In this document: one piece after another, positions 4,617 through 64,000 of the stretch | Layout: the number at the start of each line of letters is the position of its first letter | Position numbering within the stretch: the stretch's first letter is position 1 | Source of the DNA: Vicugna vicugna | Taxonomy: Eukaryota | DNA: 64,000 nt | Reading direction: 5' to 3' | Assembly (NCBI GenBank): GCA_013265495.1 | Contig: MU057989.1 | Location: forward strand, 1,691,513 to 1,755,512 | Translations under genes and position numbers: made by a program | Notes under the pieces: model-generated | Told to the model about the DNA's origin: nothing | Seen by the model: only the letters and a program-made list of their open reading frames with translations | Database searches by the model: none

Positions 4617-4658
4617 CAGCAGCTTCTGGTACTTGGCCTGGAGTTCGCTGTTCTGCTC
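4617..4658 (-). CDS. PPL: Periplakin coding exon 6 (42 nt)
   Basis: ctcag|EQNSELQAKYQKLL|gtgaga. Confidence 0.94.
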
Positions 4659-4749
4659 CTGAGGGTGGAGCGGGGGACATGGGTTAGGGCGGGGGCTGCA
4701 GGTGGAAGGCCCTCCTCCCAGGGATCCCCTCCACCTGCCACGCACACAC

Positions 4750-4875
4750 CTTGCCTCCATCCTTGGCCAGGTGGGGCCCGATGGCCTTGACCTCATTGTG
4801 GAAGATGTTGTGCTGCTCCACCTGGTGGTCCACCAGCGGCAGGTCCGTCCCAAAGCCCTGGCTGCTCAGCTTGTC
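4750..4875 (-). CDS. PPL: Periplakin coding exon 5
   Basis: ccag|DKLSSQGFGTDLPLVDHQVEQHNIFHNEVKAIGPHLAKDGGK|gtgtgt; 126 nt. Confidence 0.95.
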
Positions 4876-5479: not shown

Positions 5480-5600
5480 CAGCTTTTCCTCCACCAGCGC
5501 CTCCCAGTTGACCTGTGGGTCCACCTCCTTCACTGCCAGGTTGTAGATCTGCTTGTGTTTCACATGGAGGTTGGTCACACGTTCCCTCAGCTGACGGATG
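5480..5600 (-). CDS. PPL: Periplakin coding exon 4
   Basis: ctcag|C ATC CGT... (D)IRQLRERVTNLHVKHKQIYNLAVKEVDPQVNWEALVEEKL|gtacag; 121 nt, phase fits exon 3. Confidence 0.95.
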
Positions 5601-6253
5601 CTGAGTGGGGAGAGCGGCCACCCTGGTTAGCGAGGCTGGATGATGGGGGCACTGCCTACAACCCAAGGAGGGGCCTTACACCCCAGCCCCCAGCCTCAGC
5701 TTTCTGCTCGGTGGTCTGGAAGGACAGGTTCACAGTGGCCTTGGGTTCCAGGCAGTCACTCCCACCTTGCTCCTGTCCACTTTCCTTCATCCTGCCTTCC
5801 CTATCAATGCTTCCTGAGGGCCTACTCTGTGCCCAGAACCATAGAAGGTTCCAGAAGAAACAGGCATATCTGCTGCTCTCTGAGCCCACTGTCCAGAAGG
5901 ACCATTGGGTGCTGTGGGCTGTGTCAGGGACAGCGGTTTCTGCACACCTGAGCTGAGGCGAGAGCCACAAGCTTGGGGAGTCAGGTGGGCAGCAGGCCAG
6001 GGGGCAGCATGTTCACAGGCCGGGAGGTTAGGCAGTGCGGCGGGCAGGGGCTGTGGCGGCCGCACTCTGACCAGAACAGTGGACACCAGGGCTCTGAGCC
6101 TCAGTTTCCTGGACTGCAGAATGGGTTGTGAGGATGATGGGAAGTGTTTAGTAGGTGCTGGAATTCAGTCAGCCCTCTCCCTGACTCGGTTTCTGACTGG
6201 TGAGTGGCTGCAGCCCTGCTGCCCTGGCCCCGCGCAGCTCCCTCTGGACCTAC

Positions 6254-29644: not shown

Positions 29645-29786
29645 NNNNNNNNNNNNNNNNNNNNNNNNNNNNNNNNNNNNNNNNNNNNNNNNNNNNNNNN
29701 NNNNNNNNNNNNNNNNNNNNNNNNNNNNNNNNNNNNNNNNNNNNNNNNNNNNNNNNNNNNNNNNNNNNNNNNNNNNNNNNNNNNNN
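29645..29786. other. Assembly gap (142 N)
   Basis: Run of n inside the CpG island. Confidence 1.
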
Positions 29787-30340: not shown

Positions 30341-30402
30341 CTGCGGGTCCGAACCGTGGGGCTGTATTTGCCTTTGTTTCTCTTCCTGAAGAAGCGCGGG
30401 AG
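30341..30402 (-). CDS. PPL: Periplakin coding exon 1 (start codon not present in this assembly)
   Basis: Minus strand reads ...FRKRNKGKYSPTVRTR AG|gtgagg, matching PPL N-terminus MNSLFRKRNKGKYSPTVQTRS; first four codons read CTC CCG CGC TTC instead of ATG...; phase 2 fits exon 2. Confidence 0.88.
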
Positions 30403-43909: not shown

Positions 43910-46339
43910 AGCAGGAACACGGGAGTTTCCTTGGTGAACCTCAGGTAGAGCAAAACATCCCCGGACTTCCATCCCCCCGATAATTCCCCTTCGTGGCAAC
44001 CCCTGGAAACACAGGAAAAACACCAGCCTTCCATACAGAGGCCAAGCCCCACCCAGATCGAGTTCACCCAAGTTCCACACGAAGTTTCGAGGCCCTGTGG
44101 AGAGATTATCTGAGGCATCACTGTCTTCCGTGTTGCGGATGACCTGGGTGTGGAAGGAAGAATGGTCTGTTTTTGAATTCCAATTTTCCACATCATCCCA
44201 CTGAAAAAAGTGCAAGAAACAATAAATGAATTCAGCAAAGTTACACAATCAATACACAGAAATCAATGGCATTTCTAAACACTAATAATGAACCGTCAAA
44301 AAAAAATTAGAAAGAAAACAACCTTATCTACAATTACATCCAAAGGAACAAAACACTTAGAAATCAATTTCAGCAAGGATGTGAAGGACTTGCACACTTC
44401 AAACCTGAAGACATTGATGAAGTAACTGAAAAAGACACAAAGGGTCAGAGATCACGTCCTCATGGAATGAAAGAAATACAATTGTTAAAATGTCCATTCT
44501 ACTTAAAGCACTGAGCACAGCGAGCTCAATCCTTACCTAACCTGCAGCGGATTCTTCACAGAAGGGGAGCAAAACATCCCAAGTTTTGTGTGGAACCAAA
44601 CCCCAGAGGGTCCTGCACAGACACAGCCATCCTGAGGAGGGAGGCCAGGCTGGAGGCATCTGGTTTCCAGATGTCACACTGCATTAGGAAGCTACAGATG
44701 TTACATGCAAAACTATATAAAAGTGCAGAAGGAAACAAGAAAATCAACATGAAGTCGGGTTTGGTCATGTAGAACCTGAACTTTGAATTTCAACACACAA
44801 CACAAAAAGGCAGTCCACAAAGAAAACAAAAAATATCGTGGAATTTATCAAATTAAATATTTGTACTCTGTGGGAGGCCTTATTCAGAAAAAAAGCCCCC
44901 CTCCCCAATCACCAGCAGTCAGTCACACACAGTGAGCTTCTCCTCATTTTCCAGCCTTCTCTTTACTTGTTCAGTTGAGTGGGTCCTAAGAAAAGTGAGC
45001 TCCTGTCAGCACAGACACAGCCCGGTGCTTTCCTAGAGCTGAATGCCTGCCAATCCTAAGGAGACTGAGCTCCGTTCAGCTGCGATGCTGAGACTCTGGG
45101 TTGCCAAAGCCCAAGCCCAGGCGGTGGGTGGGGACACAGAACTGCTTTTAGCTGCAAGCAGGGTTAGATCCCAGGTGGAACCCACATGTGATATGGGACA
45201 GAGAGGTGGGCTCAGCGTCCCCTTGTGGTCAGTTAGAAAAGTGCAGGTCAAGCTTGCTTAAACTGCACTGGAGACTCTGCTCCTTGCTAAGCACACCTGC
45301 TGAGTCCATTCATCTTTGGAAATTCAAGCTGAAATATAGCCAACTATTTCATAACTCCTCCGAAATATTTAAGGAACCATTTACGGGAGAGCATATGGAA
45401 TGCAAAGAATGAAGACGCAAACTTTGTCTTACACCAAATTCACTGAAAAATTTTGACAAATTTTACATGCAAAATTATATAAAGTATAGAAGGAAACATA
45501 AAAGAAAATCAATATAACCTCAGGTTTGGTTGTGTAGAACCTGACCTTTGAGTTTCCACACACAAACATAAAAAGGCAATCCACAAAGGAAAATAGGAAT
45601 ATTGTGGACTTAATCAAGTTAAATATTTCTACTCTGTGAAAGACCTAATTCAGAAAATCAAAAGACAAGTACAAACTAGGAGTAGAATATTTGCAAATAC
45701 ATGTCTCTGAAAGGTTTTTTTTTTCTCAAAATACACAAAGAACTCTAACACAAATATCCCCATTCAAAAAAGGAAAGACCTCAATGGACACCTGGCCAAG
45801 AAGATACACAGATACCGTAGCAAATTATGCCCAGGATGGAAAAGGGAGGGGCCAGAAACACAACGGTCCAGCTCCAGTCCAGGAGCTCTGTGTGACCCTA
45901 GTCTAGCTCAACATGGAAAACAGCAGCATACAAAGCCACAGCAAACATCGTGGTCGGTGTACAAGACTTTCAGACTCACTCCTGATTTCAAAAAAAGAAA
46001 AATCCAGAAAGCTGGTCTTGACTACTGGGACTCAGTAGTGGACTGGAATTCCCACCCAGAGTCTTGAGGGAAGACACAAGAGGCACCCATGTGCGAACCA
46101 AAAAATTAAAACCCTGTTTACAGAACATAGAAAATATCCCCTTATATGTGAAACCTTTAGTAATTACTCAAAAAAGTTATGTGAAGTAGTGAACAAATGT
46201 GGCAAAGATATAGGACAGAATACTCATTCAGGAAAATCTACCTTATTTGTATACATATGCAATAAATAACCTGTAAAAGAATTTATGAAAACAATTCATT
46301 TCCAATAACATCAACATTTCTATTCAGGAATATATTTCA
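43910..46339 (+). repeat. Segmental tandem unit A (scrambled L1 ORF2 pieces plus unidentified modules)
   Basis: Collinear with 46340-48910, e.g. gaggccctgtggagagattat at ~44089 and ~46696; aggagactgagctccgttcagctg at ~45059 and ~47667. Confidence 0.9.
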
Positions 46340-46430
46340 TCAAGATACAAGACTTGTTTTTATGTAGGTAAAGTTATCTGTATGTTTGAAGTGACTGGAC
46401 TGTAAATTCCTTTTCAAAACACTATGTCAA

Positions 46431-46599
46431 GGGAGGAGGGTACAGCGCAGTGGCAGAGCACACGCTTAGCATGAGGAGGTCCTGGGTTCAATCCCCTGCA
46501 CCTCCATCAAAGTAAATAAACAAGTACATATCTGATTACCCCCCCAAAAATTAAAAATAAAATAAATAAATAAAAATTAAAAAAATTAAAAACGCCAAC
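46431..46599 (+). mobile_element. tRNA-derived SINE (vic-1-like)
   Basis: gggaggagggtacagcgcagtggcagagc...ggtcctgggttcaatcccc; 15-bp TSD aaaacacta(t/c)gtcaa at 46416-46430 and 46600-46614. Confidence 0.9.
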
Positions 46600-48589
46600 A
46601 AAACACTACGTCAATACCATGCCAGAAAAGCAGAATTCCATATAGAGGCCAAGGCTCACCAAGAACCAGTTCGTCCAAGCTCCACACAAAATTTAGAGGC
46701 CCTGTGGAGAGATTATATGTGGAACCACTGCCTTCCGTGTTGTGGATGACCTGCATGTGGAAGGAAGAGTGGTATTTTTTGAATTCCAATTTTCCACATC
46801 ATCCCACCAAAAAAGTAGCAGAAAAAATAAATGAATTCAGTAAAATTACACAATCAATACAGAGAAGTCAACTGTATTTCTAAATACTAATAATGAGTCA
46901 TCAAAAATAAAGAAAGAATATAATCCTATCTACAATTTATCTAAAGGGACAAAATACCTAGGAATCAATATAAAAAAGAATGTGAAAGACTTGCACACTG
47001 AAAACTTGAAGACATTGATCAAGTAATTGAAAAAGGCACAAAGGGTCAGAGATCATATTCTCATGGAATGGAAGAACTACAAATTGTTAAAATGTCCATT
47101 CTGCTCAAAATGTACAGAATGCAAACCATATCAAATCTACAATGAATTCTTCACAGAAAGACAGCCAATCATATTAAGTTTTGTGTGGAACCAAACCATA
47201 GAGGTTCCCCTGAGGTTAGACACAGCTACCCTGAGGAAGGAGACCAGGCTGGAGGCCTCTGGCTTCCTGATGTCACACAATGGAAGCTACAAATGCTATA
47301 TGCAAAACTATATAAAAGTACAGAAGGAAACATAGAAGAAAATCAACATAACCTTCCATTTGTTCATGTAGAACCTGATCTTTGAGTTTCAACACATAAC
47401 ACAAAAATGCAATGAAGAAAGAAAACAAGGAATGTCGAGGACTTTATCAAATTAAATATTTCTACTCTGGTAAAGACCTCTTCAGAAAACAGACCGCCAC
47501 CCCTCAGCAGTCAGCCACACACAGTATACGCTTCTCCTCATTTTCCAGCCTCCTCCTCGCCTGTTCCTCCCAGCAGGGCATCCACAAGCGGGTCCTAGGA
47601 AAACAGATTCCTGACAGCACGGTCACAGAGCGGAGCTTTCCTGAAGCTGAAACCCCGCCCATCCTAAGGAGACTGAGCTCCGTTCAGCTGAGATGCTGAG
47701 ATTCTGGGTTGCCCAAGCCCAAGCCCAGGCGGTGAGTGAGAAGAAACCGCTTTCAGCTGCAGGCAGGGTTAGATCCCAGGTGGAACCCACAAGCGATGTG
47801 GTCAGAGGCAGCCCAGCGTCCCCCTGTGGCCAGTTGGAGAACTGCAGGTCAAGCCTTGGTCACACTTCATTGGGGACCATGCTCCCTGCTGGCACACCTG
47901 CTGAGTCCATTACACTTTGGAAATTCATACTGAAATAAAGCCAACTATCCCATAACTTCTCCAAAAGAGTTAAGAAACCATTCATTGGAGATCGTATGTA
48001 ATGCAATGAAGAAGCAAACTTTGTCTTACATCAAATTTGCTCAAAAAATTTTAGAGACAAATTTTACATGCAAAATTATATAAAAGTACAGAAGGAAACA
48101 TAGAAGAAAATCAACATAACCTCGGTTTTGGTCAAGTAGAACCAAAGCTTTAAATTTCAACACACGATACAAAAAGGCCACCCACAAAGAAACACAAGGA
48201 ATATTGTGGACTTAATTATTAAGTTTAATATTTCTACTCTGTGAAAGACCTTACTCAGAAAATCAAAAGACAAGTACAAACTAGGAGCAAAAATATTTCC
48301 AAACACATATCCCAGAAAGGTTTTGTCTCAAAATATACAAAGAACTCTAACACAAAAAGACCCATCCCAAACAGGGAAAGGTTTGAATAGACACCTGGCC
48401 AAAGAAGATACACAGATACCATATCAAATTATGTCCAGGACAGGGGAGGGAGGGCCAAAACCACAATGGTCTAGCTCAAGTCCCAGAGCTCTGTGTGACC
48501 CTGGTCTAGTTCAGTGTGGAAGGAAGCAGCATATAAAGCCACAGCAAACATCGTGGTTGGTGTATAAGACTTTTAGAGTCACTCCTGAT

Positions 48590-48629
48590 GAAAGAAAGAA
48601 AGAAAGGAAAGAAAGAAAGAAAGAAAGAA

Positions 48630-48709
<80 letters not shown>

Positions 48710-48711
48710 AA
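48590..48711. repeat. (GAAA)n microsatellite between 29-bp direct repeats
   Basis: tgtataagacttttagagtcactcctgat at 48561-48589 and 48712-48740. Confidence 0.95.
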
Positions 48712-49854
48712 TGTATAAGACTTTTAGAGTCACTCCTGATTTCAAAAAAAAAAGAAAGAAAGAAAGAAAGAAAAAGAAAAAGCCAAACAGCTGGCCTTAA
48801 CTACTGTGACTCAATAGTGAATTGGAATTCCTCTCCAGAGTCTTATGGAAAATCAGAAAGGGCATCCGCATGAGAACTGAAAATTAAAACTGTGTTTACA
48901 GAATACAAAAACCCATCATAAAGCAGGTGAACGTATAAGCTTCTTTTGGATCCCAAGTGAGGTCTCTTTAACAGACCAAGATTACAGATATAGTGGTTTC
49001 AGCATTCTTAGCTCCTAACCACCAGGGCAAGAACTTTATCAAATAGAGTCCACTGTTTCAGTACAGTCCACTTTTGCATTTAGTCTACAGATTCAATTTA
49101 TTTCCATATTTACTGAGGGCAGAACATTTTGTCCCACCACAAACCCTGAGTTTTATTCATACATTTCTAAATCAGTTTTTTAAAAGTTCTGTAATGCAAC
49201 TAAATTAGAATATATTATAATGTATTTGTCGGGCTGTAAAAATCTATGGGTTTAGACAAAATCATAGTTGCAGGTAATCATCACTAAAGTATCATATGGA
49301 ATATTTCAAACCCCACCCATAACCTGTTTACCATCTCTGTTTCACCTATTTCAGAATGTCATAAATGGGGTTCTATAGTATGTAGCCTCCTTAGAATGGA
49401 TTCTTTCATTAGCAATATATATATAAGTTTCATCCATGTTTTTTGCATGGGCTGATAGGGCAATTATGCTACATTTCTGAATACTACTCCATTGCATATG
49501 TATGGGAGAAAAAATAAATTTCCCTCTACCCTTCTTTGTCCTTTGGGATACCCTCTGTAATGAAAGGCAGGTGAACTGGAGAAAAACGTTTAACAACGTA
49601 TGTACCTCCTATATGCAAGGGAGATATCCAGAAAAACTGAGTTAACGCCCTGAAATGGCCCAACCCGGTGCCTTACATACCATCTTCATCTAAAAACAAA
49701 ACAAAGGAATGGGTAGGGTGTTGAGCAGATTTAAATCTTAGCTTTCTTCTCTGATAAGAGTTTTTTGAGATTTAGTCATCCTTCCATTCCTGGTATGGAG
49801 AGGGAGACATCTTTTCAAATGTAAATTTCCCACACAAAAGGACAATCTTTTAAA

Positions 49855-50849
49855 AAAGTTTTTTACATTTTTAAAATTGAACTATAGTCAATTACAATGT
49901 GTCAATTTCTGGTGTACAGCATAATGTCCTAGTCATGCATATATTTATATACAAATATTCATTTTCATATTCTTTTTCCTTAAAGATATTACAAGATACT
50001 GAATATAGTTCCCTGTGCTATATAGAAGAAATTTGTTTTTTAATCTATTTTATATATAGTTGTTAACATTTGCAAATCTCAAACTCCTAAATTTCTCCTT
50101 TACCGCCCCCTTTCCCCCAGTAACTATAAGATTGTTTACTATGTATGCGAGCCTGTTTCTGTTTTGTAGATGAGTTCATTAGTGTCCTCTTTTTTTTCTT
50201 TCTTTCTTTCCTTTTTAGATTCCTCTTATGAGTGACATCATATGGTATTTTTCTTCCTCTTTCTGGATTACTTCACTTAGACGATGATCTCCAGGTCCAT
50301 CCATGTTGCTGCCAATGGCATTATTTTATTCTTTTTATGGCTGAGTAGTATTCAGCCATATTGTATTGTATTGTATTGTAAGGTCAACTGTGCAACTGTG
50401 TATATATAGACCACAACTTCTTTATCCAGTCATCTGTCGATGGACATTTAGGTTGCTTCCACGTCTTGGCTATCGTAAATAGTGCTGCTGTGAACACTGG
50501 GGTGCATGTGTCTTTTCAAATTAGATTTCCCTCCAGATGTATGCTTAGGATTGAAATTGCTGGATCATATGGTAAGTCTAGTTCTAATTTTTTGAGGAGT
50601 CTCCATACTGTTTTCCAAAATCGCTGCATTAAACTACATTCCCACCAACATTGTAGGAGGGTTCCCTTTTCTCCACAGCCTCTCCAGCATTTATCATTTG
50701 TAGACTTTTTAATGATGGCCATTCTGACTGGTGTGAGGTGATATCTCATTGTAGTTTTGATTTGCATTTCTCTGATAATTAGTGATATTGAGTATTTTTT
50801 CTTGTGCCTCTTGGCCATTTGTATGTCTTTTTTGAGAACTGCTTCTTTA
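49855..50849 (-). mobile_element. Younger L1 3' end (ORF2 C-terminus and 3' UTR)
   Basis: ORF 50516-50890(-) [46 protein letters not shown] is L1 ORF2 cysteine-rich end. Confidence 0.92.
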
Positions 50850-52375
50850 GGGTTAAGGAAACATTTTAAAATGTAAAAGGAACTCAACAATCACAAACCC
50901 TGACTATCTATAGAAAAAGAAAAAGGACCTCCAGGACTTCTGTTATTAAAGGCACTGCCTGCCCAGGGACATCTGCTAAACTGTCTCGGGATCCTGCCTG
51001 CGGAAAGGTAGTGTTGTCATCTCTTCTTTAAATAAGGACTCATATGAATGCCCACGACAATTTGACTATCTGTTTTAATTAGTGAAATTAAAACTCCCTG
51101 GAGGTGTCAGGGATAAAAAAACAAGAAGACCTCATGGAGTTTTAATTAATTAATCAAAAAATAAACGATAACCAAACGTTAAGGGATAATACAGCTTTTA
51201 AAAGATTAACAATTTTAGCCCGGGTAACCTCATAGAATAAAAAAACCACCGAGTGGTTAAAATTTAGACAAACTATTCAGAATGCTTTATCATTTACTGA
51301 TCCAAAATACTGATCAGTGGAGCAGGTTACTCTAGGGACAACAGCACTGTTCTGGAGTTCATATTGACAATAGGGTTTATGACCTTGATGTTGGATCCAT
51401 CCACTCAAGTCATGTAACTACGATTACCGGTTTCTTCAATGATTGAAGCTCTGTGTTGTCTGAGTTCAGGCTGGAGTCAGTTTCTTTCAATTATACATTT
51501 CTCTCGGTATCAAAGGACAAGAGAAATAAGGTCAACTGTGCAAAACGACTTCAGCCTGACGGTATCATCACAATTCAATGAATTTATACATGCTCTACTG
51601 CAGAGCAGTGTTTGTTAAGGTGGTAGAGCCCGGAAATTGAGTAAATCTCAAAGCTTTATCTCCAGAAGTTCAAGCCCTCTTCTTTGCTAAAATGTTTACC
51701 GTCAGAATTCTTTCACTAATGATGCCAATTTTACTCAATATACCATTCCTCGCATGAAATCAAAGTCAAATTCTGGGCTATATACAAATCTGGAAAGATG
51801 GGAACACTCAGCCCCTATGGGTGACTACAACCCATTGCTGATGCAGTCAGATGATTGATTAATGAGCCACTATGATGATCGTCACTCTTATCAATTTATA
51901 TATTTACTATCGTGTCATTTCTAGCCTCCACCCTGGCCTTTGCAATATAAATTTCCCTTCTCATCCCTTTTCCGCTAGTTAATAGAAACCTACTGTTTAT
52001 GGGGAAAGGGTATAGTTTAAGTGGCAGAGCACATGCTCAGCACCCAAGAGGTCCCAGGTTCAATCCCTGGTACCTCCTCCAAGCAGAAATCAATGAAGAA
52101 ACCTAATTACCCCCCCAGCAAACAAACAACACAAGAAACCTACTGTTTATTATAGCTATATCAAGCCTAAGCTATTTATTCCATCCACTGATGGGGATGA
52201 GCTTCAGATCCAAGTACGCACTAATCAGAGCACAGACCATCTCTTATGAAGTAGCACTTATGAAGTAACGCTCTTATGAAGAGAAATTTTTCTCTTCTCA
52301 GTCCTCCTGATAAATGGATCATGTACAGTTTCAATAGGAATTATTACACAAGAACGCCTATAAATAATTTTCCCA
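50850..52375 (+). pseudogene. NUMT copy 1: 16S rRNA 3' half, tRNA-Leu(UUR) (~51614-51689), ND1 5' part (from ~51692)
   Basis: gtaaaaggaactc, ggcactgcctgcccag, tagggtttatgaccttgatgttggatc (16S); gttaaggtggtagagcccgg (Leu); ctacaacccattgctgatgcagtca, cagaccatctcttatgaagt (ND1); many indels. Confidence 0.92.
52001..52133 (+). mobile_element. vic-1-like SINE inside NUMT ND1
   Basis: 17-bp perfect TSD agaaacctactgtttat at 51984-52000 and 52134-52150. Confidence 0.9.
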
Positions 52376-52819
52376 TTTTTTTATTTTTCAGTTTTATAAG
52401 CTACAATTGTTATAGTCTGATTTGATTGCACATATACAATGGATTGCATGTGAAAACGTATACACAATATACTGCACATATTTAAAAAATTTACATGTAG
52501 GTGCTGTTCATTGCTTCTAAGAATTTTTAGAGCTTTAGCTTTTTAAACTTACATAATTATCAAAGGAATAAAGCCAACCACAAAATAAGAATTAATTCAC
52601 AAAGATACATACACTCTGCTATTAATAATTGCCAAGATATGGAAGCATCCTAAATGCACATCAATAGACGAATGGATAAAGAAGACACAGCATATATATG
52701 TAATGGAATACAAATCACCCATAAGAAAGAATGGTATTTTGCCATTTGCAGCCCTTCATTCACTTTTTTTTTCACTTCAAAACCCAGAATTTTATAACTG
52801 GGATAAACATTTCCATTGC

Positions 52820-53110
52820 ATCAAATAGAATAAAATACCTAGAAATAAGCTTAACCAAGGAGGTTACCTAGACTTTGAAAACTGTAAAACACTGATGAAG
52901 GAAATCGAAGATGATACAAAGAAATGGAAAGATATCTTGTGCTCTCGGGTTGGAAGAATCAATGTTATCAAAATGGCCACACTACCCAAAAGCAATCCAC
53001 AGATCCAACACAACCCCTGTTAAAATACTCAGGACATTTTTCACAGAACTAGAACAAACAATTCCAAAATTTATATAGAACCATAAGAGACTCTGAACTG
53101 CAAAAGCAAT
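52820..53110 (+). mobile_element. L1 ORF2 internal fragment
   Basis: agaataaaatacctagaaataagcttaaccaaggagg...gaaatggaaagatatc...ggaagaatcaatg. Confidence 0.85.
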
Positions 53111-54996
53111 CTTTTTTCTTTTTCTTTCTTCTTTTTGTTCTCTTTTCTTGTGGTTTGATGACTATAGAAGTTCCTTTAACATTTGTTGTAAAGCAGGTTT
53201 GGTGGTGCTGAATTCTTTTAGCTTTTGTTTCATATCTGTGAAGCTTGATTTCTCCATCAAGTCTGAACGAGAGCCTTGCTGGATAGATTGTTCTTGGTTG
53301 TAAGTTTCCTCCTTGCATCACTTTAAATACATCATGCCACTCTCTTCTGGCCTGTAGAGTTTCTGCTAAAAAATCAGCTAATAACCTTATGGGAGCTCCT
53401 TTGTATGTTCTTTGTTGCTTTTCTCTTGCTAATTTTAATATTTCTCCTTATCCTTAATTGTTGTCAATTTGATGACTGTGTGCTTTGGTGTGCTCCTCTT
53501 TGGGTTGATCCTGTGTGGAACTCCGTGCTTCCTGGACTCGGCTGACTGTTTTCTTTCCCAAGTTGGGGAAGTGTTTGGTTATTATTTCTCCAAAAACTTT
53601 CTCAGGTTCTTTCTCTTTCTGGGACCCCTATAATGTGAATATTAGTGCATTTCATGCTGTCCCAGAGTTCTCTTAAACTATCTTCATTTCTTTTCATTTT
53701 TTTTTCTTTTTTCTGTTCTGAAGTAGTGATTTCCACTAATCTGTCTTGTAGCTCACTGATCCGTTCTTCTGCCTCATTTAGTCTATTCTCGGTTCCTTCT
53801 AGTGTATTGTTCATTTCAGTGGTTTTATTCTTCAACTCTGTTTGGGTATTCTTTATGTTTTCCAACTCTTTGCTAAAAACATTGCTCTGTGCATCTGCAC
53901 TCCTCTTGAGGTCTCCGAACATCTTCACCATCATTACTTTAAACTCTTTCTCAGATAAAATTGCCTATCTCCTCATCACTTATTTCTTCTTCTCAGATTT
54001 TATCTTGTGCCTTGGCCTGGGAGATACTTCTTTGCCACCTCATATCCTCTATCTTTCAATGTGTTTGTGGATTCCTTCCACGGGCTTTGGGATTATTTTC
54101 TTATTTCCAGTATCTTCCCCTAGTGGATGGGGCTGGACTAGAGGCTTATGCAGTCTTCCTGGCAGGAGGAGTTGATGCCTGCCTACTGTTGGGTGAAGCT
54201 TGGTTCTGGACCTCTGGTGGGCAGGGCTGTGTCTAGAGGCAGTTGGTGGCTCAGGAAGTCTGCTGATGGGTGTGGCTGTGTTCCCACCCCATATGTTGTT
54301 TGGCCTGAAGCTTCCCTACAGGCTGTTGGGTGGGGCTAGGTCTTGGTGCTGATGATCCAATCAGGATGTCAGCCTCCGGGTAAGCTCATGTAGATTAACA
54401 TTCCCAGAATGTCCGCCACCAGCTTTTATGGCCCTTGAGTGAGCCACAGCCATCCCCTACCTCCCCAGGAGACCCTCCAAATCCAGCAGGAAGGTGTGGC
54501 CCAGGTTCCTATGTAATCGCTGCCTCTGCCCTTGGACCTGGAGCACGTGAGATTCTGTGTACATTTATCAAGAGACTGAAGTCTGTTTCCACCAGTCCTG
54601 TAGGGCTCCTGGAGTTAAGCCCCACTGGCCTTCAAAACCAGATTTCCTGGGGTCTCCTCCTCCTCTCAATGCTAGAATCCAGGGCTGGGGAGCCTGACAT
54701 GGGGCTTAGAACTGTCACTCCTGGGGGAGGGCCTCTGTGACTTAATTATTCTTCAGATTGTAGGTCGTCCACCCTGGGAGGTCAGGCGCCAAATTCTATC
54801 ACGAGTACGCCCCTCCTAACATCATGCTGTGTTCCCTCTTTATGTTCCCAGTTGAAGAGGATCTTTTTTGCTAGGTGCACAGTCTTTCTTTTTTTTTTTT
54901 TTTTTGGACAGTTGTTTAGCAGTCGGTTGTGGTTTTGCTGTAGTCAGGAGGGGAGGCAAGCTCGCAGTCCTTCCACTCTGCCATCTTGACTGGAGG
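53111..54996 (-). mobile_element. L1 5' UTR plus ORF1 segment
   Basis: ORF 53602-53934(-) ...EMNNTLEGTENRLNEAEERISELQDRLVEI...NIHIIGVPE and 53049-53321(-) LQPRTIYPARLSF are L1 ORF1p; 5' end cagtcaagatggcagag. Confidence 0.9.
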
Positions 54997-55759
54997 TACG
55001 TAGCTTTTTTAAACAATACCTCCTACCTTCCACTAAATCTCATAGTTCATAAGCCATTATTGCCCTGTTTAAACTCCCAAACAAGGCAAACTGTGTAACT
55101 ACATAAGACTCAACTAACTCATCTAATACACAGACTGCCGTTATTTAAGCAACACAAACTCAGGATGATTACAAACTAGCTGACTGATGATACCAATCAA
55201 TTACTTATATATGTAAGTATTACATAGAAAAATATTTTGCTAATTCAGCCACTTAGGTCTACCAAAATAAAAAATATACTGCATTTTAACAATCTCTCCA
55301 AAAAGGTTCAATACTAACTGTAACCTAACCCACACTGCAACACTGAATACCAATATGTCACTTGAATATATGTCTTACACATACAAAATCCTACTCACAT
55401 TTTTCATGTAACTTAATAAATTAAGTAAAGCACTGAGAATGCCTAGATGTGTTTACTAATTTCATAAAGACAGGTGTGGACCCAGCCTTTCTATTAGATT
55501 CCAATAAACTTACACATGCAAGTATCTGCATCTCATTGGGAATGCCCTCTCAATAATGAAAGACTGATCTTGGCAATTATAAATAATGTTCTTGTCAATG
55601 GCAGGGTGTATGTATCTGTTGAATTAATTCTTATTTTGTGGTTGGCTTTATTCCTTTGATAATGTAACCTTTAAAAAGCTAAAGCTCTAAACATTCTTAG
55701 AAACAATGAACAGTATATATTTTAAAATATATGTGCAGTTAAAAAAAAAAAGAAAAAGA

Positions 55760-56283
55760 AAAGACCTATCAAGCCACGAAAGACATGGAAGAAACTTAAA
55801 AGACATATTAGTAAATGAAAGAAGCCAGTCTGAAAAGGCTACAAACCATATGATTACAACCAAATGACATTCTGGAAAAGGCACAGCTACAGAAACAATA
55901 AAAAGATCATGGTTTCCAGGGGCTTGGGGAGAGAGAGGGAGGGAGGAATAAACAGATGGAGCACAAGGGATTTCCAGGGCAATGAAATTATTCTGTGTGA
56001 TACTATAGTGGTGGCTACATGTCATTATGCATTTGTCAAAACCCATAGAACGCACATCATCAAAAGTGAACCCTAGTGTAAACTACGGACTTTGGTTGAC
56101 AATAATGTGCCATGTTGGTTCATCTATTGTACCAAATATGCCACACTGATGAGGGAGGTTGAGGGTAGGGGAGTATATATGTGTGCATGGGGAGGGCTAT
56201 GTGCGAACTCTGTATTTTCTGCTCAATTCTGCTATGAACCTGAAACTTCTCTAAAAAAATTAAGGCTATTAATTAAAAAAAAG
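55760..56283 (+). mobile_element. L1MC1-like 3' end inserted in NUMT 12S
   Basis: ctatcaagccacgaaagacatggaagaaactt...gaaagaagccagtctgaaaaggctac...aaacccatagaa...gtgaaccctagtgtaaactacggactttgg. Confidence 0.8.
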
Positions 56284-56588
56284 TAATAAAAGATTGAAAG
56301 GAGCAAACTAAAGTAAACACACCAAAAAAGTAGCACACAACAGCTTAACTGTGTCCCCATGCGAAATGGCAGTGATAAAAACTGAGCCGTGAAGGGAAGT
56401 CTGACTAAGTTATATTAACATATTACAATTTGTAAATTCTGAAATAGCCACTGTGATCATAGATTAATTCATATTAATAGAAATCTAACAAAAAGCATGT
56501 TAAAGAATAGCCCAAAATACAGTCCTGGCTAAGCTGAAAAAAGCCATAGCTAAAGAAAACATGCTCTGAAAGTGATATTAATATTTCT

Positions 56589-56720
56589 TTTTTTGGTTTG
56601 TTTTAATTTTTTGTTTGTTTGGGGAATCTTTTTTTTTTTCTAGTGGAGGTGCTGGGGATTGAACCCAGGACCTTGTGCATGCTAGGCACTCACTCTACCA
56701 CTAAGCTATAACCTCCCTTC
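56589..56720 (-). mobile_element. vic-1-like SINE inside NUMT 12S
   Basis: ggaggtgctggggattgaacccaggacc; TSD a(t/c)attaatatttct at 56575-56588 and 56721-56734. Confidence 0.88.
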
Positions 56721-57422
56721 ACATTAATATTTCTGATTACACTACAGTGAGGGTCCAAACTGGGATTACATTTCCCACTATGCTTAGGCCTAAATTCAAA
56801 TAATCATAAGAATGAAATTATTTCACCAGAATACTGCAAGCAACAGCCTAAAAGTCAAAAATCATGGCAGTGGTTCACACTTCTCTGGAGGAGCCTGCTC
56901 TATAACCAATGAACTCTGATAAACATCACAAGCCCAATACACCAACATCCTCAGAAAATCCTGCTACAGAGCACTAGTGACCGTCATCATCAAACATGAA
57001 AACCTCAGGTCAGGTGCTGTCACATGGAAGAAATGACCTACATTTTCTAACTCTAGAACATAAAATAATTTCTATGAAATTTTTATGAAATAAAAAACCA
57101 AAGAGGAATTTAGTGGTAAATTAAGAATCGAAGGCTTAATTGAATCAGGCCATGAAGCACACACACACCGCCTGCCACACTCTTTAAATACTGACAACTT
57201 TGCAACCTATCAATACATTCCAAGCATACAGAAGGAAATAAGTCCTAATAAAGTAACCATCCTGGAAACTGTGCTTGGATGAATCAAAGTGTAGCTTACC
57301 CAAAAGCTCCAAGTTTCACTCAGATTTCATACCGTATGAACACTGTGAACTAAGTCTAGCCCAAACTTCCCACCAAATTCAACTTTCATAAGTAAATTAA
57401 ATAAACCACTAATTCAATATCT

Positions 57423-58215
57423 ACCAGAAAGGGACACATTGTAACTGACTGTACTTCAATTAAAAAAACAAACATCTAATGCCTGCATCAAAATTTTATG
57501 AACAAGAAAAGCTGGAGAGGGTGTGGAGAAAAGGGTACACTCCTACACTGCGGGTGGGAATATAAATTGGTGCAGTTACTATGAAGCTACTATTTGGTCT
57601 AGCAATCCCACTCCTGAGCATATATCCGGAGAACAGTCTAATTTAAAAATGATACATGTACCCTAATGTTCACAGCAGTCCTGCATGCAAGAGCCAAGAC
57701 ATGAAAGCAACCTAAATGTCCATCAAGAGATAACTGGATAAAATGGTTTGGGTCTCTGTATGCAATGGAATATTACTCAGCCTTACAACAAGAATGAAAT
57801 AATTCCATTTGCAGCAACATGGATGGGCCTGAAGACTAACACTAAAGTAACTAAGACAAAGACATACCATATGTGATTATCACTACTACGCGGGATCTAA
57901 CGAAGAGTACAAGTGAACTTATTTACAGAACAGAAGATGACCCAGAGAAATGGAGAACAAGCTCATGGCCACTAAAGGGGAAAGGTGGGAGGGATAATTT
58001 GGGAGTTGGAATTAGCAGATACAAACTATATATAAAATTGATGAAAACAAGGATGTACTGTCTAGCACAGGGAACTATATTCAATGACATCATAAACTCT
58101 AATGAAAGGGACCTGAAAAAGGATATAGGTAGGTAGAGAGATCTATATGGAATCACTCTGCTGTATACCAAAACCTAACACAACACACTAAATCAACTGT
58201 ACTTCAATTAAACAA
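57423..58215 (+). mobile_element. L1 3' end inserted at start of NUMT 16S
   Basis: gctggagagggtgtggagaaaaggg...aagcaacctaaatgtccatc...tagcacagggaactatattcaa...aatcaactgtacttcaatt; degenerate TSD attcaa(t/c)atct. Confidence 0.85.
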
Positions 58216-59311
58216 AAACTTTCATTCAACATCTTAAGTAGAGAAAGTTGAAATTTAAATGATATAGGGTATCATGAGGGAAAGATGAAAGAAACATTAA
58301 AAGCACCAAAGAGCAAAGCTTAATCCTTTAAAATTTTGCATAAGATTTAACTAGACAAGTAATGTAGAGGAATTAAGATAATTATCCTGAAACCAGATCA
58401 GCTTCTCAAGTAAAGTTTACAAGAACAAACTCATCAATATGGCAGAATAATGAGAAGATTATGAGTAAATGTGACCCTCCTCAGAAGCCAGGAACACATG
58501 GTTGTCCAAAAACAGATTTCAGTTCAACTTTAAATTTTACTTACAAAACGTATCTTTTCACATAATTTTAAATGTTCTTTTAAAAAGGTATAGTTTTTTG
58601 TTCAGGATACGCTTTTCCTAGAGAATAAGCGGAAACATCACCATTGTTGGATTAAAAGCAGCCATCAATTAAGAAAGTGTTCAAGGTCAAGAACACATTC
58701 ATCTCAATACCAATAGTCAGTAAAGAAACTCTTAATTTAATACTGGACTAATGTGTGATTTAATAGAAGCAAAACTGTTCTTGTGGGTAACAGGAAATAT
58801 TTCTCCTTGCATAAGCATATATTGCAACAGATAACCCACTGCTAGTTAACAGGAAAATAAACCTGAAGCAAATATCTAATTATTTATTAAAGCAATTGTT
58901 CACCCAAGACAGGTGAGCATTTAAAAAGAGGTTTTAAAATGTAAAAGGAACTTGGCAATCACAAATCCTTACTGTTTATTTAAAAAAATAAAAAGTAAAA
59001 AATACATATATATAGAGAGACCCTCCAGCTCTTCTAGTATTAAAGGCACTGCCTGGTCAGGGACATTTGTTCAATGGTCACAGTATCCTGACTGTGGAAA
59101 GGCAGCAGAGTCATTTTTTTTCCCTCTAACTAAGGACTTGTATAAATGGCCATACAAGGGTTTTACTATCTCTTAATCAGTGAAATTGGCCCTCCCGTGA
59201 AGAGGTGGACATAATCCAAGAAAAGAAGGACCTATGGAGATTTAATTAATCCAAAAAGTACATGATAACCAAAATCAAAGGGGTAATATAGCATTTAAAA
59301 GATTAACAATT

Positions 59312-59497
59312 GGGGGGAGGGTATAGCTCAGTGGTAGAGTGCATGCCTAGCATGCATGAGGTTAGGTCCTGGGTTCAATCCCCAGCACCTCCATTAAAAA
59401 AAAACGAAAACAAAACAAAAAAAAACCTAATAACCTCCCCTACAAACAAATAAACAAAAACAAAAAATTAAAATTAAAGAAATGTTATTCTAAAAAG
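59312..59497 (+). mobile_element. vic-1-like SINE inside NUMT 16S
   Basis: ggggggagggtatagctcagtggtagagtgcatgcctagcatgcatgagg...gggttcaatccccagcacctcc, A-rich tail; TSD aaagattaaca(a/g)tt. Confidence 0.92.
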
Positions 59498-61299
59498 AAA
59501 GATTAACAGTTTTGATTGGGGTGACCTCAAGAATAAAACAAACACAGAATGATTACAATTTAGACCAACTATTCAGAATGCTTTATCACTTACTGATTGG
59601 AAATATTGATCAGAGGAGGAGCTTACTTTAGAAACAACAGCACAATCCTACTCTGGAATTCCTGTCAACAGTAGGGTTCATGACATTGGTGCTGGATCAG
59701 TACATGCCAGTCCTGCTCTAACTGCAATGAATGGTTTGTCCAATGATTAAATTTCTGTGTTGTCTAAGTTCAGAATGGAGTAACCCCAGTCAGTTTCCAC
59801 CCAGTATACATTTCTCCCAGAAAGAAAGGACAGGAGAAATGAGGTCTATTTTACAAAACGACTTCAAATGGACACTGCAATTCAATTACTTCATACATCC
59901 TCTACTGTATGTTCCCCAGGGTTTGTTAGGGTGGCAGAGCCTGGTAATTGAGGAAAACTTAAAGCTTTATCCACAGAGGTTCAAGGCCTCTTCTTGACGT
60001 AAACGTTTACAATCAGAATTTTTTCACTGATGATTCCAATTTTATTCAATGCAGCATGCTTCCCATGAATTGAAGTCCTAGGCTACACACAAATCCGGAA
60101 AGGGCAGAAAACTGCCCACCCCCATGGGTGATTACAGCCCACTGAGGATTCAGTCAAACTACTGATTAAAGAACCACTGCGGTCATCAATCTAACCAATT
60201 TATTTATTTTTTATTGTATCAGTTTTAGCCTCCACCCTGGCTATCACAATATGAATTTCGCTTCTCATACCCTAGAAGAAATAGAAATCTAGGTGTACTA
60301 TTTATAATAGCTGTTATCAAGCCAAAGCTGTTTATACTACCCACCGATGTGGATGAGTTTCCAATTCAAATATGCACTAACCAGAGCTCTATGGGCAGAA
60401 GCACAGACCACCTTGTATGAAGCAACACTAAAATTTTTCTCTTCTCAGTCATACAAATAAGTGGATCCTGTACACTTTCAGCGAGAATCATTACACAAGA
60501 ACATCTATGACAAATTTTCCTATCTTGACGCCTACCCATAATTTGATTTCTCTCTATGCCAGCAGAAACTATTGGAGCCCCCATTTGATTTAACAGAAAA
60601 AGAATCAAAACTTGTCTTTGGCCTTGAGGAAGAAAACACTGCAGGCCCATTTGCCCTGTTCTTCCTAGCAAAGTATGTCAATATCATTATAATGAATATC
60701 TTCACAACCATCCCATTTTTAGGAGAATTTAACAACATATACATGCCAGAATTATAATCAGCCAATTTCACCATTAAAACACTCCTCTTAACAATCTCCT
60801 TTCTATGATTTTGAATATCCTGCCCACAATTTTGATAGGATCAACTTAGACAGCTCTTGTGAAAATTATTTACTAGTAGCATTAGCTCTACAAAAATGAC
60901 AAGTTTCACTGACCATCATCACAACAGAGTCACCTTGACAGGGTGGGTAAGAGATGTTTAAATACTCTTATTCCTTGAATTATAAAAACTGAAACTATTC
61001 TTAAGAATTTAAAATTCTTCATGCTACACCACATTACACCATCTACTCAATAGTAAGGTCCATTAAATAAGCTATCAGGCCCATGCCCCCAAAATGTTGT
61101 ATAATCTTTCTGTACCAGTAAACACTTTTGTTTTTACTATCATTCTACTGACCATTCTCTCAGAAATCATCATGGTAGTAACAAGCTCACACTGGTTACT
61201 GTTATCTTCATTCTAACAAAAAAATTTAACCTAAGAGCTACAGAAGCACCAAACAAATATTTCTAACAGAAAATACTGCATCAGTACTATTTCTAATAT

Positions 61300-62545
61300 C
61301 AAAAGACGTCTTGATGGACTCATGACTAATCACCTCATGCTCACACCTTAATATATTCTGGTATTTTTTAATTTGGGGGGCTGCTATGACTCAGCTATGG
61401 CCTTCAGAGGTCTTAACACAATCAAGCAACTTGTAGCTCAGCTTAAACTGAACACTATTTACCAACACCATCAACCATAATGTTACTGAGTCAATGCTCA
61501 CAGGACTTAGAACCGCATATCAGGTACACAGTCTGCTTAATCAAACCTACAACTTCCCACTAAATATCACAATACATAAGCCATCATTGCCCTGCCAAAC
61601 TCCCTAAACAAGGCAAAGCATGTAACTATACAGGATTCACATTACTCATCTAACAAACAGACTGCCCTTCATCAACGCAGTCAGGATAATTACCAACCAC
61701 CTGACTAATGTTACAAACCAACTGCTTAGATACTTAAGTTTTACATAGAAAGACAGTCCCCTAGTGTACCCCTTTAGGTCTAACAAAATTTAAAAACTAA
61801 AGTACATTTTAAGTCTTAAAAAATAATAGTTTAATACTACTTGGAACACAATACTATTTACTACAGAGAACACCAATATACCACTTAAATACGTGAGTCT
61901 CATACGTACAAAATACTTCTCAAATTGTTGATGTAACCTAATAATTTAAGCAAAGTGCTGGATGTGCCTAGATGACTTTATTAATTTCTGAAATACATAC
62001 GTGTGTCCCCAAGCTTTCTTTTAATTTCTGATTAAATTATAAATGCAAGTATCTCATCCCACTGAGAATATCCTCTAAACTATTAAAGATTAAAAGGCGC
62101 AACCCATATGGCACACTGAGAAGCACACACTTAACTACGTCTCCATTTGAAATGGCAGTGATAAAAATTATGCCATGAAAGACTGTTTTAGTAAGCTTTA
62201 TTAACACATTATGGTTGGTAAATTTTGAGCCAGCTACTGTGATCAAGAAATGAACCCATATTAATAGAAATCCAGCAGAAAGCATGTAAAGAATAGCCCA
62301 AAAGAATGTCATAACGAATCTGAAAAAAACCTAGCTAAAATAAAATAACCTATAAAAGTGACGTTAATATTTCTGGCTACACTACAGCAAAGATTTAAAC
62401 TGGGGTTATGTATCCCACTATACTTGGCCCTAAATTCAAATAATTGTAACAACAAAATTATCCTTGCATCAGCCTCAAAAACAAAGGACTTGGTGGTGAC
62501 TCATACTAATCCGGAGGACCTGTTCTGTAATCAGTAAACTCTGAA
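61300..62545 (+). pseudogene. NUMT copy 3: control region (central domain to CSBs), tRNA-Phe (~61927-61998), 12S 5' half
   Basis: tcttgatggactcatgactaatcacctcatgctcacac, gactcagctatggcc, agtcaatgctcacaggac, tgccaaactccctaaacaag; aaactggggttatgtatcccactat; aaaggacttggtggtg. Confidence 0.92.
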
Positions 62546-63310
62546 ATTATCTGTTTATAATTCTGGCATGAGAGCTTTTAAAATGCTTCTAAAAACGGAA
62601 TCATTGTGAAAATATTAATTACAACGATATTGATATATTCCGCTAGAAAGAACAGGAAAAATGGGCCTGCTTCAGTTTTCTAACTTCAAGCCAAATACAA
62701 GTTTTGATTCCCCTTCTGTTAAATCAAATGAGGCTCCACTGGCTTTTGCTAGTGTAGAGAGAAATCAAATTATGGGTAAGGGCCAAGATGGGAAAATCAG
62801 CCATAGGTGTTCCTGTGCAATAAATCCCCATTGAGAGTGCACATGACTCATCTGTCAGCAGGCCTGAGAAGAGAAAACTGTCAGTGTCACTTCATACGGC
62901 ACTGTCTGTGAGCCTGCCGGTAGCGCTCTGACAGGGTGTGTACTGAATCTGAGGCTCACCCAGGTGACAGGGTGGATAAATAGCTTGGGCTTGATAAAGC
63001 TATTCTGAATAGTATACACCTAGGTTTCTATTAATTAGTGGAAAAGTTACGAGAAGCAGAAATTATATTGTGAGAGGTGCCGGGGTGGATGCAGTAATAA
63101 ACATACAAACTGATAAGACTGATGATCATGGCGGTCCTTCGTCAATCATTTAACTGCATCAGTAACGGTTTACAATCACCCAAAGGGGCTGACACCGTTT
63201 CACCCTTTCTGCATTTGCATATAGCTTAGGACTTTCCATTCAATTCATGCGAGGATTGCTACATTTCAATTGGAATCATTATTGAAAGAATTCTGACTGA
63301 ATATATTTAA
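62546..63310 (-). pseudogene. NUMT ND1 copy in inverted orientation
   Basis: Reverse complement gives gagcctcatttgatttaacagaaggggaatcaaaacttgt, gcaggcccatttttcctgttctttctagcggaata, catgccagaattata, collinear with 60003-60770. Confidence 0.9.
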
Positions 63311-63863
63311 GCAAGATGCAAGACTTATTTTTATGTAGGTAAAAGTAGTCGGTAGGCTTGAAATGCCTGGAAAGTAAATTACTTTTCAGAATTCTTGCCA
63401 ATACCACGCCAGAAACACAGAGGAAACATCAAACTTCCAATTAGAGGCCAAGCCTTTCCCAGATTCAGTTCACCCATCCTCCAAAAGTCGTTTAGAGGCA
63501 CTGTAGAAAGTCCACATGAGGAGCCACTGTCTTCCCTATTGTGGATGACCTGGCTGTGGCAAAAAGTGTGGGATTTCTGAATTCCAATTTTCCGTATCTT
63601 TTCACCAGAAAGCTACAAGAAATAGTAAATGAATTCAGGCAAGTTACACAGTCAATACACAGAATCAATCGCATTTATAAACACTAATAATGAACTGTCA
63701 AGAAAAGAAAGAAAACCACCTTTATAGGATTGCACGCAAAAAAACAAAATAGCTAGGAATCAACAGAAGCAAGGGTGTGAAAGACTTACACACTGAAAAC
63801 TTAAAGACAGTGATGAAGAAATTGGAAAAGACAGAAATAAAGGGTACAAAATATCTCATTCTT
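63311..63863 (+). repeat. Third, more diverged copy (unit C) of the segmental unit
   Basis: caagatgcaagacttatttttatgtaggtaaa matches 46341; agaggccaagc, gtggatgacctg, gaattccaattttcc, then the same L1 ORF2 piece. Confidence 0.88.
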
Positions 63864-64000
63864 GGATGTGCGTGTGATCTGGCTGTGACACCTGTCATCC
63901 CATTGATCGCCAGGGTTGATTCGGCTGATCTGGCTGGCTAGATGGGTGTCCCCTTCCTCCCTCACGGCTCCATGTGTGTCTCTCCCAAAGCTGTGTGCTA
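63864..64000 (+). pseudogene. 7SK snRNA retropseudogene (5' part, runs off window)
   Basis: ggatgtg...gatctggctgtgacacctgtcatcccattgatcgccagggttgattcggctgatctggctggctag...gggtgtccccttcctccctcac matches the 7SK 5' hairpin; CpG>TpG decay; inserted into L1 with no upstream Pol III promoter. Confidence 0.93.

Follow-up and report, generated by a model that had tools for sequence, protein, structure and literature searches.

A very old NUMT upstream of the camelid periplakin gene, probably duplicated locally after a period of shared nuclear decay

The window (the whole stretch of 64,000 nucleotides that was analysed) contained ~7.9 kb of decayed mitochondrial DNA (mtDNA) between positions 50,856 and 63,308, arranged in four blocks: 16S-Leu-ND1' (A), CR'-Phe-12S-Val-16S-Leu-ND1-IQM-ND2' (B), CR-Phe-12S' (C), and ND1' in inverted orientation (D). 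We consider it quite probable that this is a non-functional, very old nuclear mitochondrial insertion (NUMT) of the ordinary kind, a judgement that covers the whole explanation: a single old NUMT, shared decay, and then local duplication. The window also held PPL exons, L1, SINE, and 7SK, which place the block in nuclear DNA, and periplakin (PPL), the nearest gene seen within the window, was located 20-33 kb downstream of the block. The features were as follows (Cfer_numt names are those of a published wild-camel catalogue, see below).

30343..30393, minus strand: first coding exon of PPL (exon match in the window)
50856..51992, plus strand: copy A part 1, 3' half of 16S, tRNA-Leu, ND1 nt 1-300 (alignment, nhmmer; Cfer_numt192 at ~50856-51388)
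52141..52379, plus strand: copy A part 2, ND1 up to ~nt 530, ended by L1 (alignment, nhmmer)
55005..55568, plus strand: start of copy B, right part of the control region, tRNA-Phe, 12S start (72% to C; Phe/12S matches; Cfer_numt193)
56291..57405, plus strand: copy B, 12S, tRNA-Val (inferred), 16S start (alignment, nhmmer; Cfer_numt194)
58168..59311, plus strand: copy B, middle of 16S (alignment, nhmmer; Cfer_numt195-196)
59503..61302, plus strand: end of copy B, 3' part of 16S, Leu, whole ND1 (8 indels), Ile, Gln, Met, first ~220 nt of ND2 (Cfer_numt197-199)
61295..61310, plus strand: the sole visible head-to-tail junction, ND2 (mt ~5086) to control region (mt ~561) (alignment, nhmmer)
61303..62544, plus strand: copy C, control region from the conserved block, tRNA-Phe, 12S to mt 1601 (Cfer_numt200-201)
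62542..63308, minus strand: copy D, inverted ND1 nt 1-780, with a few-base overlap with C at the join (alignment, nhmmer, Pfam)

When one complete mammalian mtDNA was used as the reference (L006, rotated; CR 1-955, ND1 3702-4657, ND2 4868-5908), the window aligned collinearly in 10 places, at 63-71% identity (E 3e-18 to 0): A 50856-52375 with mt 2839-4232, B 55398-61298 with mt 952-5082, C 61303-62544 with mt 564-1601, and D 62542-63308 with mt 4479-3700 on the minus strand. The top score of the reversed-reference control was 32.6 bits (E 0.17), and gene-by-gene nhmmer on the reversed window returned zero matches. The order proposed in an earlier note on this DNA, made by eye, was thereby confirmed, as were its gene counts: nhmmer found ND1 three times (four pieces), 16S/Leu and Phe/12S twice each, and Ile, Gln, Met, and ND2 once each. 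None of the genes from Trp to Pro was present (best nhmmer E only 0.44 in the window), and the copies were real rather than collapsing into one, so that its description of an ancient, multi-copy block confined to CR-ND2 also held. The proposed head-to-tail array of a ~5 kb unit was borne out in part: the unit measured ~4.5 kb (mt 561-5086) and one ND2-to-CR junction was found at ~61,300; only B was near complete, the A-B junction is now L1, and D is inverted. The incomplete copies A, C, and D spanned ~1.4, ~1.0, and ~0.8 kb of the reference, respectively.

On the protein level, tblastn on the window matched ND1 and ND2 alone, Pfam NADHdh was detected in 3 of 9 frames submitted, and a PDB search backed the identity of ND1 (E 3e-21); a protein search using one decayed ND1 frame gave no match. 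tRNA-Val gave no nhmmer match when searched alone, and its presence in B is suggested by the collinear 12S-16S alignment. The only direct mtDNA match within the control regions was that of block C at 61300-61509 (E 9e-16); the part at 55005-55400 in B was 72% identical to copy C and was unmatched by any control region compared. No match was found in the plasmid collection, and the viral contigs contained no mtDNA. An Rfam match to bacterial LSU at 59634-59791 corresponded to the 16S remnant.

The mitochondrial blocks were interrupted by six inserts.

51993..52140, plus strand: tRNA-derived SINE in ND1, copy A only, 17-20 bp target-site duplication (same site empty in B and D)
52380..55004, strand not assigned: L1 block with ORF1 pieces on the minus strand (Pfam Tnp_22)
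55569..56290, strand not assigned: old L1-derived insert in 12S, copy B only, 14 bp target-site duplication (copy comparison, TSD search)
~56589-56722, minus strand: SINE in the 12S-16S part of copy B, 16 bp TSD (TSD search)
57406..58167, plus strand: L1 3' pieces in 16S, copy B, edges approximate (alignment gap; 62% to the L1 at 49809-50709)
59312..59500, plus strand: tRNA-derived SINE in 16S, copy B only, 14 bp TSD (TSD search)

Every insert was confined to a single copy, and target-site duplications flanked 4 of the 6. The insert at 55569..56290 is presumably the 3' end of an L1MC type, and the L1 label at 57406..58167 is a reading of the sequence. The block at 52380..55004 (2.6 kb) had no clear target-site duplication and no nhmmer match to mtDNA, and replaced ~1.1 kb of the expected continuation from A to B. 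Three 'tRNA-Ala' calls by ARAGORN, considered as mitochondrial tRNAs, proved to be SINE heads. SINE pairs in the window differed by p 0.08-0.34 over only 72-80 sites, too short or too mixed to serve as a calibration, and the same applied to L1 pairs; the clock is accordingly loose.

The history of the block was read from ND1. Differences by codon position between the copies were even: 0.24/0.20/0.23 for A-B, 0.28/0.26/0.29 for B-D, and 0.27/0.20/0.33 for A-D, versus 0.08-0.11/0.02-0.04/0.33-0.43 for mtDNAs (no camelid mitogenome was recognised among the 9 loci consulted). This absence of codon-position bias, together with indels, is the pattern of neutral nuclear decay, which amounted in total to ~0.21-0.26 substitutions per site (JC), while the copies differed by 22-29% from one another. 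Among the 207 first and second codon positions belonging to ND1 residues that do not vary in 120/120 proteins (mammalian, among the matches listed, none camelid), 15 had an identical changed base in all three copies, versus 0.5 expected under independent decay. In a stricter count (independent pairwise alignments, sites at least 4 nt from gaps), 6-7 of 124-130 sites were shared, versus 1.2-1.3 triple changes of any kind expected. The stem branch at the invariant-residue sites was 0.095 (bootstrap 0.066-0.124) and the tips 0.06-0.16. Since differences were even among codon positions and lesions were shared at invariant residues, one nuclear copy appears to have decayed first and to have been duplicated later. 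A few of the shared changes may be states of the donor lineage, the reference set being without a camelid. A +1 indel at ND1 nt ~332 was common to A and B in every one of the three pairwise sets, and also to D in the multiple alignment; the share of D in the indels varied with the alignment. Tree support for the order of duplications was only 51-70%.

Duplication was not limited to mtDNA, as self-comparison revealed.

63299..63837, plus strand: start of a non-mitochondrial unit, adjoining D
44006-46000 and 46328-48911, plus strand: two direct copies of the non-mitochondrial unit flanking D

The latter two differed from each other by K2P 0.19, and each from the copy at 63.4 kb by 0.26-0.33; this range (0.19-0.33) overlaps the divergence between the NUMT copies (0.26-0.38). 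These two distant copies held at most ~20 nt of mitochondrial edge, and 0 of 4 open frames of the unit matched a Pfam family.

NUMTs usually enter the nucleus by capture at a double-strand break. Here, a single entry of mtDNA spanning at least the control region to ND2 was followed by ~0.07-0.12 substitutions per site and small indels in one nuclear lineage; ordinary local duplication then probably yielded A, B, and C in direct orientation and D inverted, in a region whose other nuclear DNA was duplicated as well; L1s and SINEs entered single copies later, and deletions removed most of A and C. The limit to CR-ND2 would thus reflect the duplicated segment and later losses, with no need for a circular sub-genomic mtDNA.

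The locus itself has been catalogued: Cfer_numt192-201 of Camelus ferus (CM020785.1:16,037,814-16,049,547; Uvizl et al. 2024, PMC10764098, Table S3) are the same locus, all 10 pieces mapping to A, B, and C at a single offset that holds to within 67 bp across 11.7 kb. In the 88 of 318 rows of this camel table that the comparison took in, there was no entry for the ND1 of A, for either control-region part, or for inverted D. What is new here is the duplication history. The expectation that default screens would probably miss the block was wrong, given the ten published pieces; with a bovid mtDNA query, dc-megablast and default blastn both detected it, and megablast alone missed all of it. Copy D was undetected by any of the three. 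The claim that the block was far more decayed than typical NUMTs gained little from the same rows: median identity was 73.8% for its published pieces versus 75.0% for the 78 other camel rows among the 88 compared, and 78.0% for the genome mean (PMC10764098). A literature search on NUMTs with periplakin, camel, or alpaca returned no title on this locus.

Adjacent overlapping copies produced by nuclear duplication, as proposed here, are described among post-insertion tandem or segmental NUMT duplications (PMC2820518; PMC10764098 Table S2, e.g., pig numt176-180/181-185). The paired pig rows have identical identity values, which suggests a recent duplication, whereas the camelid copies differ by 22-29% and include an inverted one, and shared decay before duplication is measurable. 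NUMT insertion-rate estimates treat tandem duplication after insertion as rare, and Table S2 of the catalogue containing this locus counts zero such events for C. ferus; this block shows that old duplications can escape notice, since their start and end coordinates have stopped matching.

At average mammalian rates, the copies would have split ~60-78 Myr ago and the insertion would date from ~85-120 Myr ago, or be younger if the local clock was fast. The decay (JC 0.21-0.26) is as deep as that of dated ancestral NUMTs, and since it equals that of a camel NUMT common to horse and carnivores, the insertion may predate the artiodactyl radiation. In the published lists for cow, pig, horse, dog, and cat, no matching block was found on the chromosomes taken to carry PPL. 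This absence fits badly with a pre-artiodactyl age at this place. We only tentatively propose, at somewhat less than even chances, a Cretaceous insertion (before the artiodactyl radiation, perhaps of Laurasiatheria or Boreoeutheria age) whose overlooked orthologs lie upstream of PPL in other orders, or which has there a parent locus such as candidate 6. If this is true, the four copies are an mtDNA fossil several kilobases long whose two-phase history can be measured, would serve in a disputed part of the mammal tree as a large presence/absence marker, and show that catalogues undercount old NUMT duplications.

Where the early decay took place is a sub-question compatible with the preferred explanation. 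The block may have been copied from an older NUMT elsewhere, such as Cfer_numt224-230, and brought next to PPL in early camelids, with local duplication afterwards, a reading we regard as rather doubtful. According to the consulted tables of PMC10764098, Cfer_numt224-230 ('candidate 6', Table S8) spans D-loop to ND2, including the interval of the block, with identities of 70-78%, and is common to cat, dog, ferret, hyena, sea lion, horse, and orca; such a parent would account for old decay without a listed ortholog near PPL. However, it was compared by published coordinates and identities rather than by sequence alignment, several other camel blocks in these tables also cover 12S-ND1, and rRNA genes are the easiest to detect. 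Candidate 6 and pre-eutherian NUMTs (10.1101/2025.03.14.643190) have the same gene span and decay level in camel (published identities: 70-78% for candidate 6 versus 71-84% for the block upstream of PPL); they have cross-order orthologs and are not described in the sources consulted as locally duplicated in camel. The block was absent from the seven cross-clade candidates of PMC10764098, and the consulted parts of the lists (cow, pig, horse, dog, cat, and cross-clade candidates) contained no cross-order ortholog of it.

The domestic cat Numt, a 7.9 kb tandem array (10.1101/2023.06.19.545568; PMC2820518), is the nearest model for a different history, in which a CR-ND2 segment was inserted as, or quickly amplified to, a head-to-tail array whose units were kept alike for a time by unequal crossing-over or gene conversion, and then diverged and eroded. 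Its unit likewise extends from the control region across the rRNA genes to ND1 and ND2 and forms a head-to-tail junction, and the array bears signs of conversion (10.1101/2023.06.19.545568); here, there is one clean ND2-to-CR junction, every block falls inside one 4.5 kb interval, and an array homogenised for a while by gene conversion would also give shared lesions, a case that the present tests cannot separate. Nevertheless, this history is unlikely: the cat Numt is recent, and two long-read assemblies show 9 complete repeats of it (38-76 in an older estimate), whereas the camelid block has one near-complete unit, three fragments, and an inversion, at 63-71% identity to non-camelid mtDNA; D carries the shared lesions in spite of its inversion; the non-mitochondrial flank is duplicated at similar divergence; and the consulted rows of the camel table list nothing more on that chromosome short of 35.57 Mb (PMC10764098). 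Without homogenisation it fails outright (15/207 shared versus 0.5 expected), and the likeness to the cat Numt drawn in the earlier note, taken as a fresh amplification, is unsupported because nuclear lesions are common to the copies.

Three or four independent insertions of mtDNA into one hotspot at different times would agree with the 22-29% divergence, but are very improbable because donors would differ mainly at third positions, without shared changes at invariant residues, and the opposite was seen. An assembly artefact (false duplication or mtDNA contamination) can practically be dismissed: although contiguity was not seen directly in reads, copies that far apart each have their own inserts, no N occurs in 43-64 kb, spacing is the same in the published wild-camel assembly, whether or not that assembly is independent of the source of the window, and 20 of 24 runs (7 studies, 3 organism labels) held 0.76-0.81 of the words of 55000-63400, the other four (0.00-0.03 of words) being set aside.

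As judged from the sequence, the block has no apparent function. A humanin-like nuclear gene (MTRNR2L type) was rejected as chance: the 22-codon frame was open in B and broken in A, the chance of its staying open was 16-33%, and the Pfam score was below the cut-off. With three ND1 copies that decayed independently, the phases of decay can be dated better than from a single one, and the block may serve as a phylogenetic marker if orthologs or a parent locus exist in other orders. Its identity of ~70% makes interference with camel mtDNA sequencing unlikely.

Reference mtDNAs were taken from a metagenome scan: L006 (complete, bovid-like), L005 (which we take to be cattle-like), and L009 (pig; ND1 99% identical to Sus scrofa). 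Since none of these is camelid, the block identities are those toward non-camelid mtDNA. Another metagenome mtDNA contig, L003:1-3109, was 92-93% identical to both cattle-like and pig loci; it looks chimeric and was excluded as a reference. Ten alignments (63-71% identity, E 3e-18 to 0) placed four decayed blocks (NUMT copies A-D) on L006; the best score in a reversed-sequence control was 32.6 bits. These blocks, a duplicated non-mitochondrial unit, and later inserts are as follows (mt, rotated L006 coordinates).

50,856-52,379: copy A, mt 2839-4232
55,005-61,302: copy B, control region through to mt 5086 in ND2
61,303-62,544: copy C, mt 561-1601
62,542-63,308: copy D, inverted, ND1
44006-46000: non-mitochondrial unit
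46328-48911: non-mitochondrial unit, in tandem with the preceding one
63299-63837: third start of the non-mitochondrial unit, right of D
52.0, 56.6, and 59.3 kb: SINE inserts, each in a single copy, with 14-20 bp target-site duplications
55.6-56.3 kb: L1-derived insert, in one copy only, with a target-site duplication in the same size range

Mitochondrial sequence made up ~7.9 of 12.45 kb. The gene map and copy counts of the earlier note were correct by alignment, gene-by-gene nhmmer, and tblastn, as was its restriction of the block to control region-ND2: no gene in the Trp-to-Pro interval was matched by these gene searches (best E 0.44), which also gave nothing in the reversed window. The identity of ND1 was backed by PDB and Pfam matches, while tRNA-Val (from collinearity) and the control-region part of B (from collinearity and copy C) are putative assignments rather than direct matches. 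The only visible head-to-tail junction was ND2 to control region (~61,300), and C and D overlapped by a few bases at their join. An L1 block (Pfam Tnp_22), with no clear duplication, stood in for the ~1.1 kb through which A would be expected to continue into B, so that the A-B junction was unreadable. The 55.6 kb insert is presumably L1MC, and we assume the SINEs to be camelid-specific. An L1-joined piece formed an inverted pair, one member in the A-B gap (52471-52628) and the other inside the 12S insert of B (55592-55739); at 84-88% identity, far closer than the NUMT copies, the pair could represent either a repeat of younger age or local copying at a later time. A 14-16 bp tandem duplication within ND1 (52241-52281) was found in copy A only.

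Of 207 sites at codon positions 1 and 2 of the 228 residues invariant in 120/120 ND1 proteins, 15 showed one identical base change in A, B, and D, versus 0.5 predicted by independent decay. Because joint alignment can inflate the shared count, each copy was realigned separately and sites within 4 nt of a gap were removed: 6-7 of 124-130 sites were shared, versus 1.2-1.3 expected triple changes of any kind. Branch lengths on the invariant-residue sites were 0.095 (0.066-0.124) for the stem and 0.06-0.16 for the tips. A +1 indel at ND1 nt ~332 was common to A and B in all alignments, and was found in D in the joint and one of three pairwise alignments; a -1 near nt 364-386, whose position was not sharp, occurred in all three. 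From these shared changes and indels among the ND1 copies, the sequence existed as a single nuclear lineage before the copies separated. The rRNA genes also had changes common to the copies (74/685 and 44/486 columns), which may be donor-lineage change.

We favor a history in which one nuclear copy would have decayed first and local duplication would then have made the copies. An early array, kept uniform by homogenization for a time and then diverged, is less favored because D, in spite of its inversion, carries the shared lesions, B alone is near complete, and the non-mitochondrial unit flanking D was also duplicated, with K2P values (0.19-0.33) overlapping those of the NUMT copies (0.26-0.38). 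Separate insertions from different donors were rejected, since the mutual differences of the ND1 copies were even across codon positions, unlike those of mtDNAs. The earlier interpretation was partly supported: an old, multi-copy control region-ND2 NUMT held up, a cat-type array did not, given the near completeness of B alone and the inversion of D. The non-mitochondrial unit (~2.6 kb), which recurs at 44.0 and 46.3-46.6 kb, comprised an old L1-ORF2-like piece together with unique sequence carrying a ~200 bp internal repeat, and its 46.3 kb copy started within ~20 nt of D's mitochondrial edge; the region was generally prone to local duplication. A (GAAA)30 microsatellite (48561-48780), with a 39 bp direct duplication on its flanks, lay at the end of the second unit.

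The window is camelid nuclear DNA: exons ~1-12 of periplakin (PPL; minus strand) occupied its left half; position 30,393 marks the first coding exon, and identity was highest to Camelus dromedarius. GC content shifted sharply from ~55% to ~37% at 43900-44100, between GC-rich PPL territory and AT-rich, L1-dense DNA where the duplicated region begins. The reading frames tested between 31 and 51 kb revealed no gene. A run of 142 N (29645-29786) lay in PPL intron 1 close to the first exon, with no N past 29.8 kb. A 7SK RNA copy, probably a retrocopy, was represented by its 5' part (63864-64000; Rfam E 4e-40), cut off at the window edge. PPL is presumably located on cow NC_037352, pig chromosome 3, and the horse, dog, and cat chromosomes compared below.

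Nuclear decay on constrained sites (total JC 0.21-0.26) corresponded to 86-106 Myr at 2.48e-9 and 97-120 Myr at another rate (both cited in the part of PMC11403998 consulted). As an independent yardstick, wild camel NUMT rows Cfer_numt224-230, of the same span with 70-78% identity and common to horse, orca, and five carnivores (PMC10764098, parts consulted), agreed in part with an old age. On the other hand, the portions of its lists consulted contained no row on cow NC_037352, none at 34.6-43.1 Mb of pig chromosome 3 (29 of 62 rows), a single, unrelated row for the horse chromosome, and no similar row in dog (14 rows) or cat (15 rows), which weighs against a pre-artiodactyl age at the PPL-adjacent place. 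Any one of three circumstances would reconcile these results: loss in other lineages, a fast local clock, or arrival of the block by copying from an older NUMT. Orthology calls for the block may be present in the human sheet or Tables S4-S6. Camel blocks spanning 12S-16S-ND1(-ND2) with similar identity (Cfer_numt183-186, 224-230, 244-249, and 261-262; Table S3, part consulted) are possible paralogs.

Pieces of the block were already catalogued as Cfer_numt192-201 on wild camel CM020785.1 (Uvizl et al. 2024, Table S3, PMC10764098; part consulted), all ten mapping into A, B, and C (offsets 15,986,942-15,987,009); the duplication history and inverted copy D are small additions. Their identity to camel mtDNA was 71-84% (median 73.8%), versus a median of 75.0% for the other 78 camel rows on the same page and a genome mean of 78.0%, and 53 of the 88 rows examined had ≤76%. 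Using a bovid mtDNA reference and a genome-scale database size, megablast recovered no pieces; five were recovered by dc-megablast and eight by default blastn, with D in neither set. From the identities and blastn results, the block falls toward the old end of the ordinary camel NUMT range, within reach of standard screens. The suggestion that it is far more decayed than typical was weakly supported, and the expectation that default screens would miss it did not hold. The following camel row on CM020785.1 is at 35.57 Mb, and therefore no more units were detected rightward at the published sensitivity; the part of PMC10764098 consulted counted no tandem duplications for camel. No paper on duplication of the locus was found in the literature searched, which covered few subscription journals.

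The block is an old, locally duplicated NUMT, and belongs with post-insertion NUMT duplications, which work alike (PMC2820518, part consulted). In the portion of 10.1101/2023.06.19.545568 consulted, the cat Numt (9 repeats in long-read assemblies) was alike in span and junction type; of three cat features tested, the block lacked two, several complete units and one orientation. A survey with camel among its species (10.1101/2025.03.14.643190, part consulted) had already described NUMTs of at least 100 Myr.

No function was found for the block, which is a dead NUMT. A humanin-like 22-codon frame in 16S of B (59146-59214) was rejected as functional: its openness was within chance (16-33%), its Pfam match (E 0.003) was under the cut-off, and it was broken in A. 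The copies differed by 22-29% from one another, each with different inserts, and 20 of 24 listed runs (7 studies, 3 organism labels) shared 0.76-0.81 of the 55,000-63,400 words, indicating that the block is real; the run with the highest word share may be the source sample.
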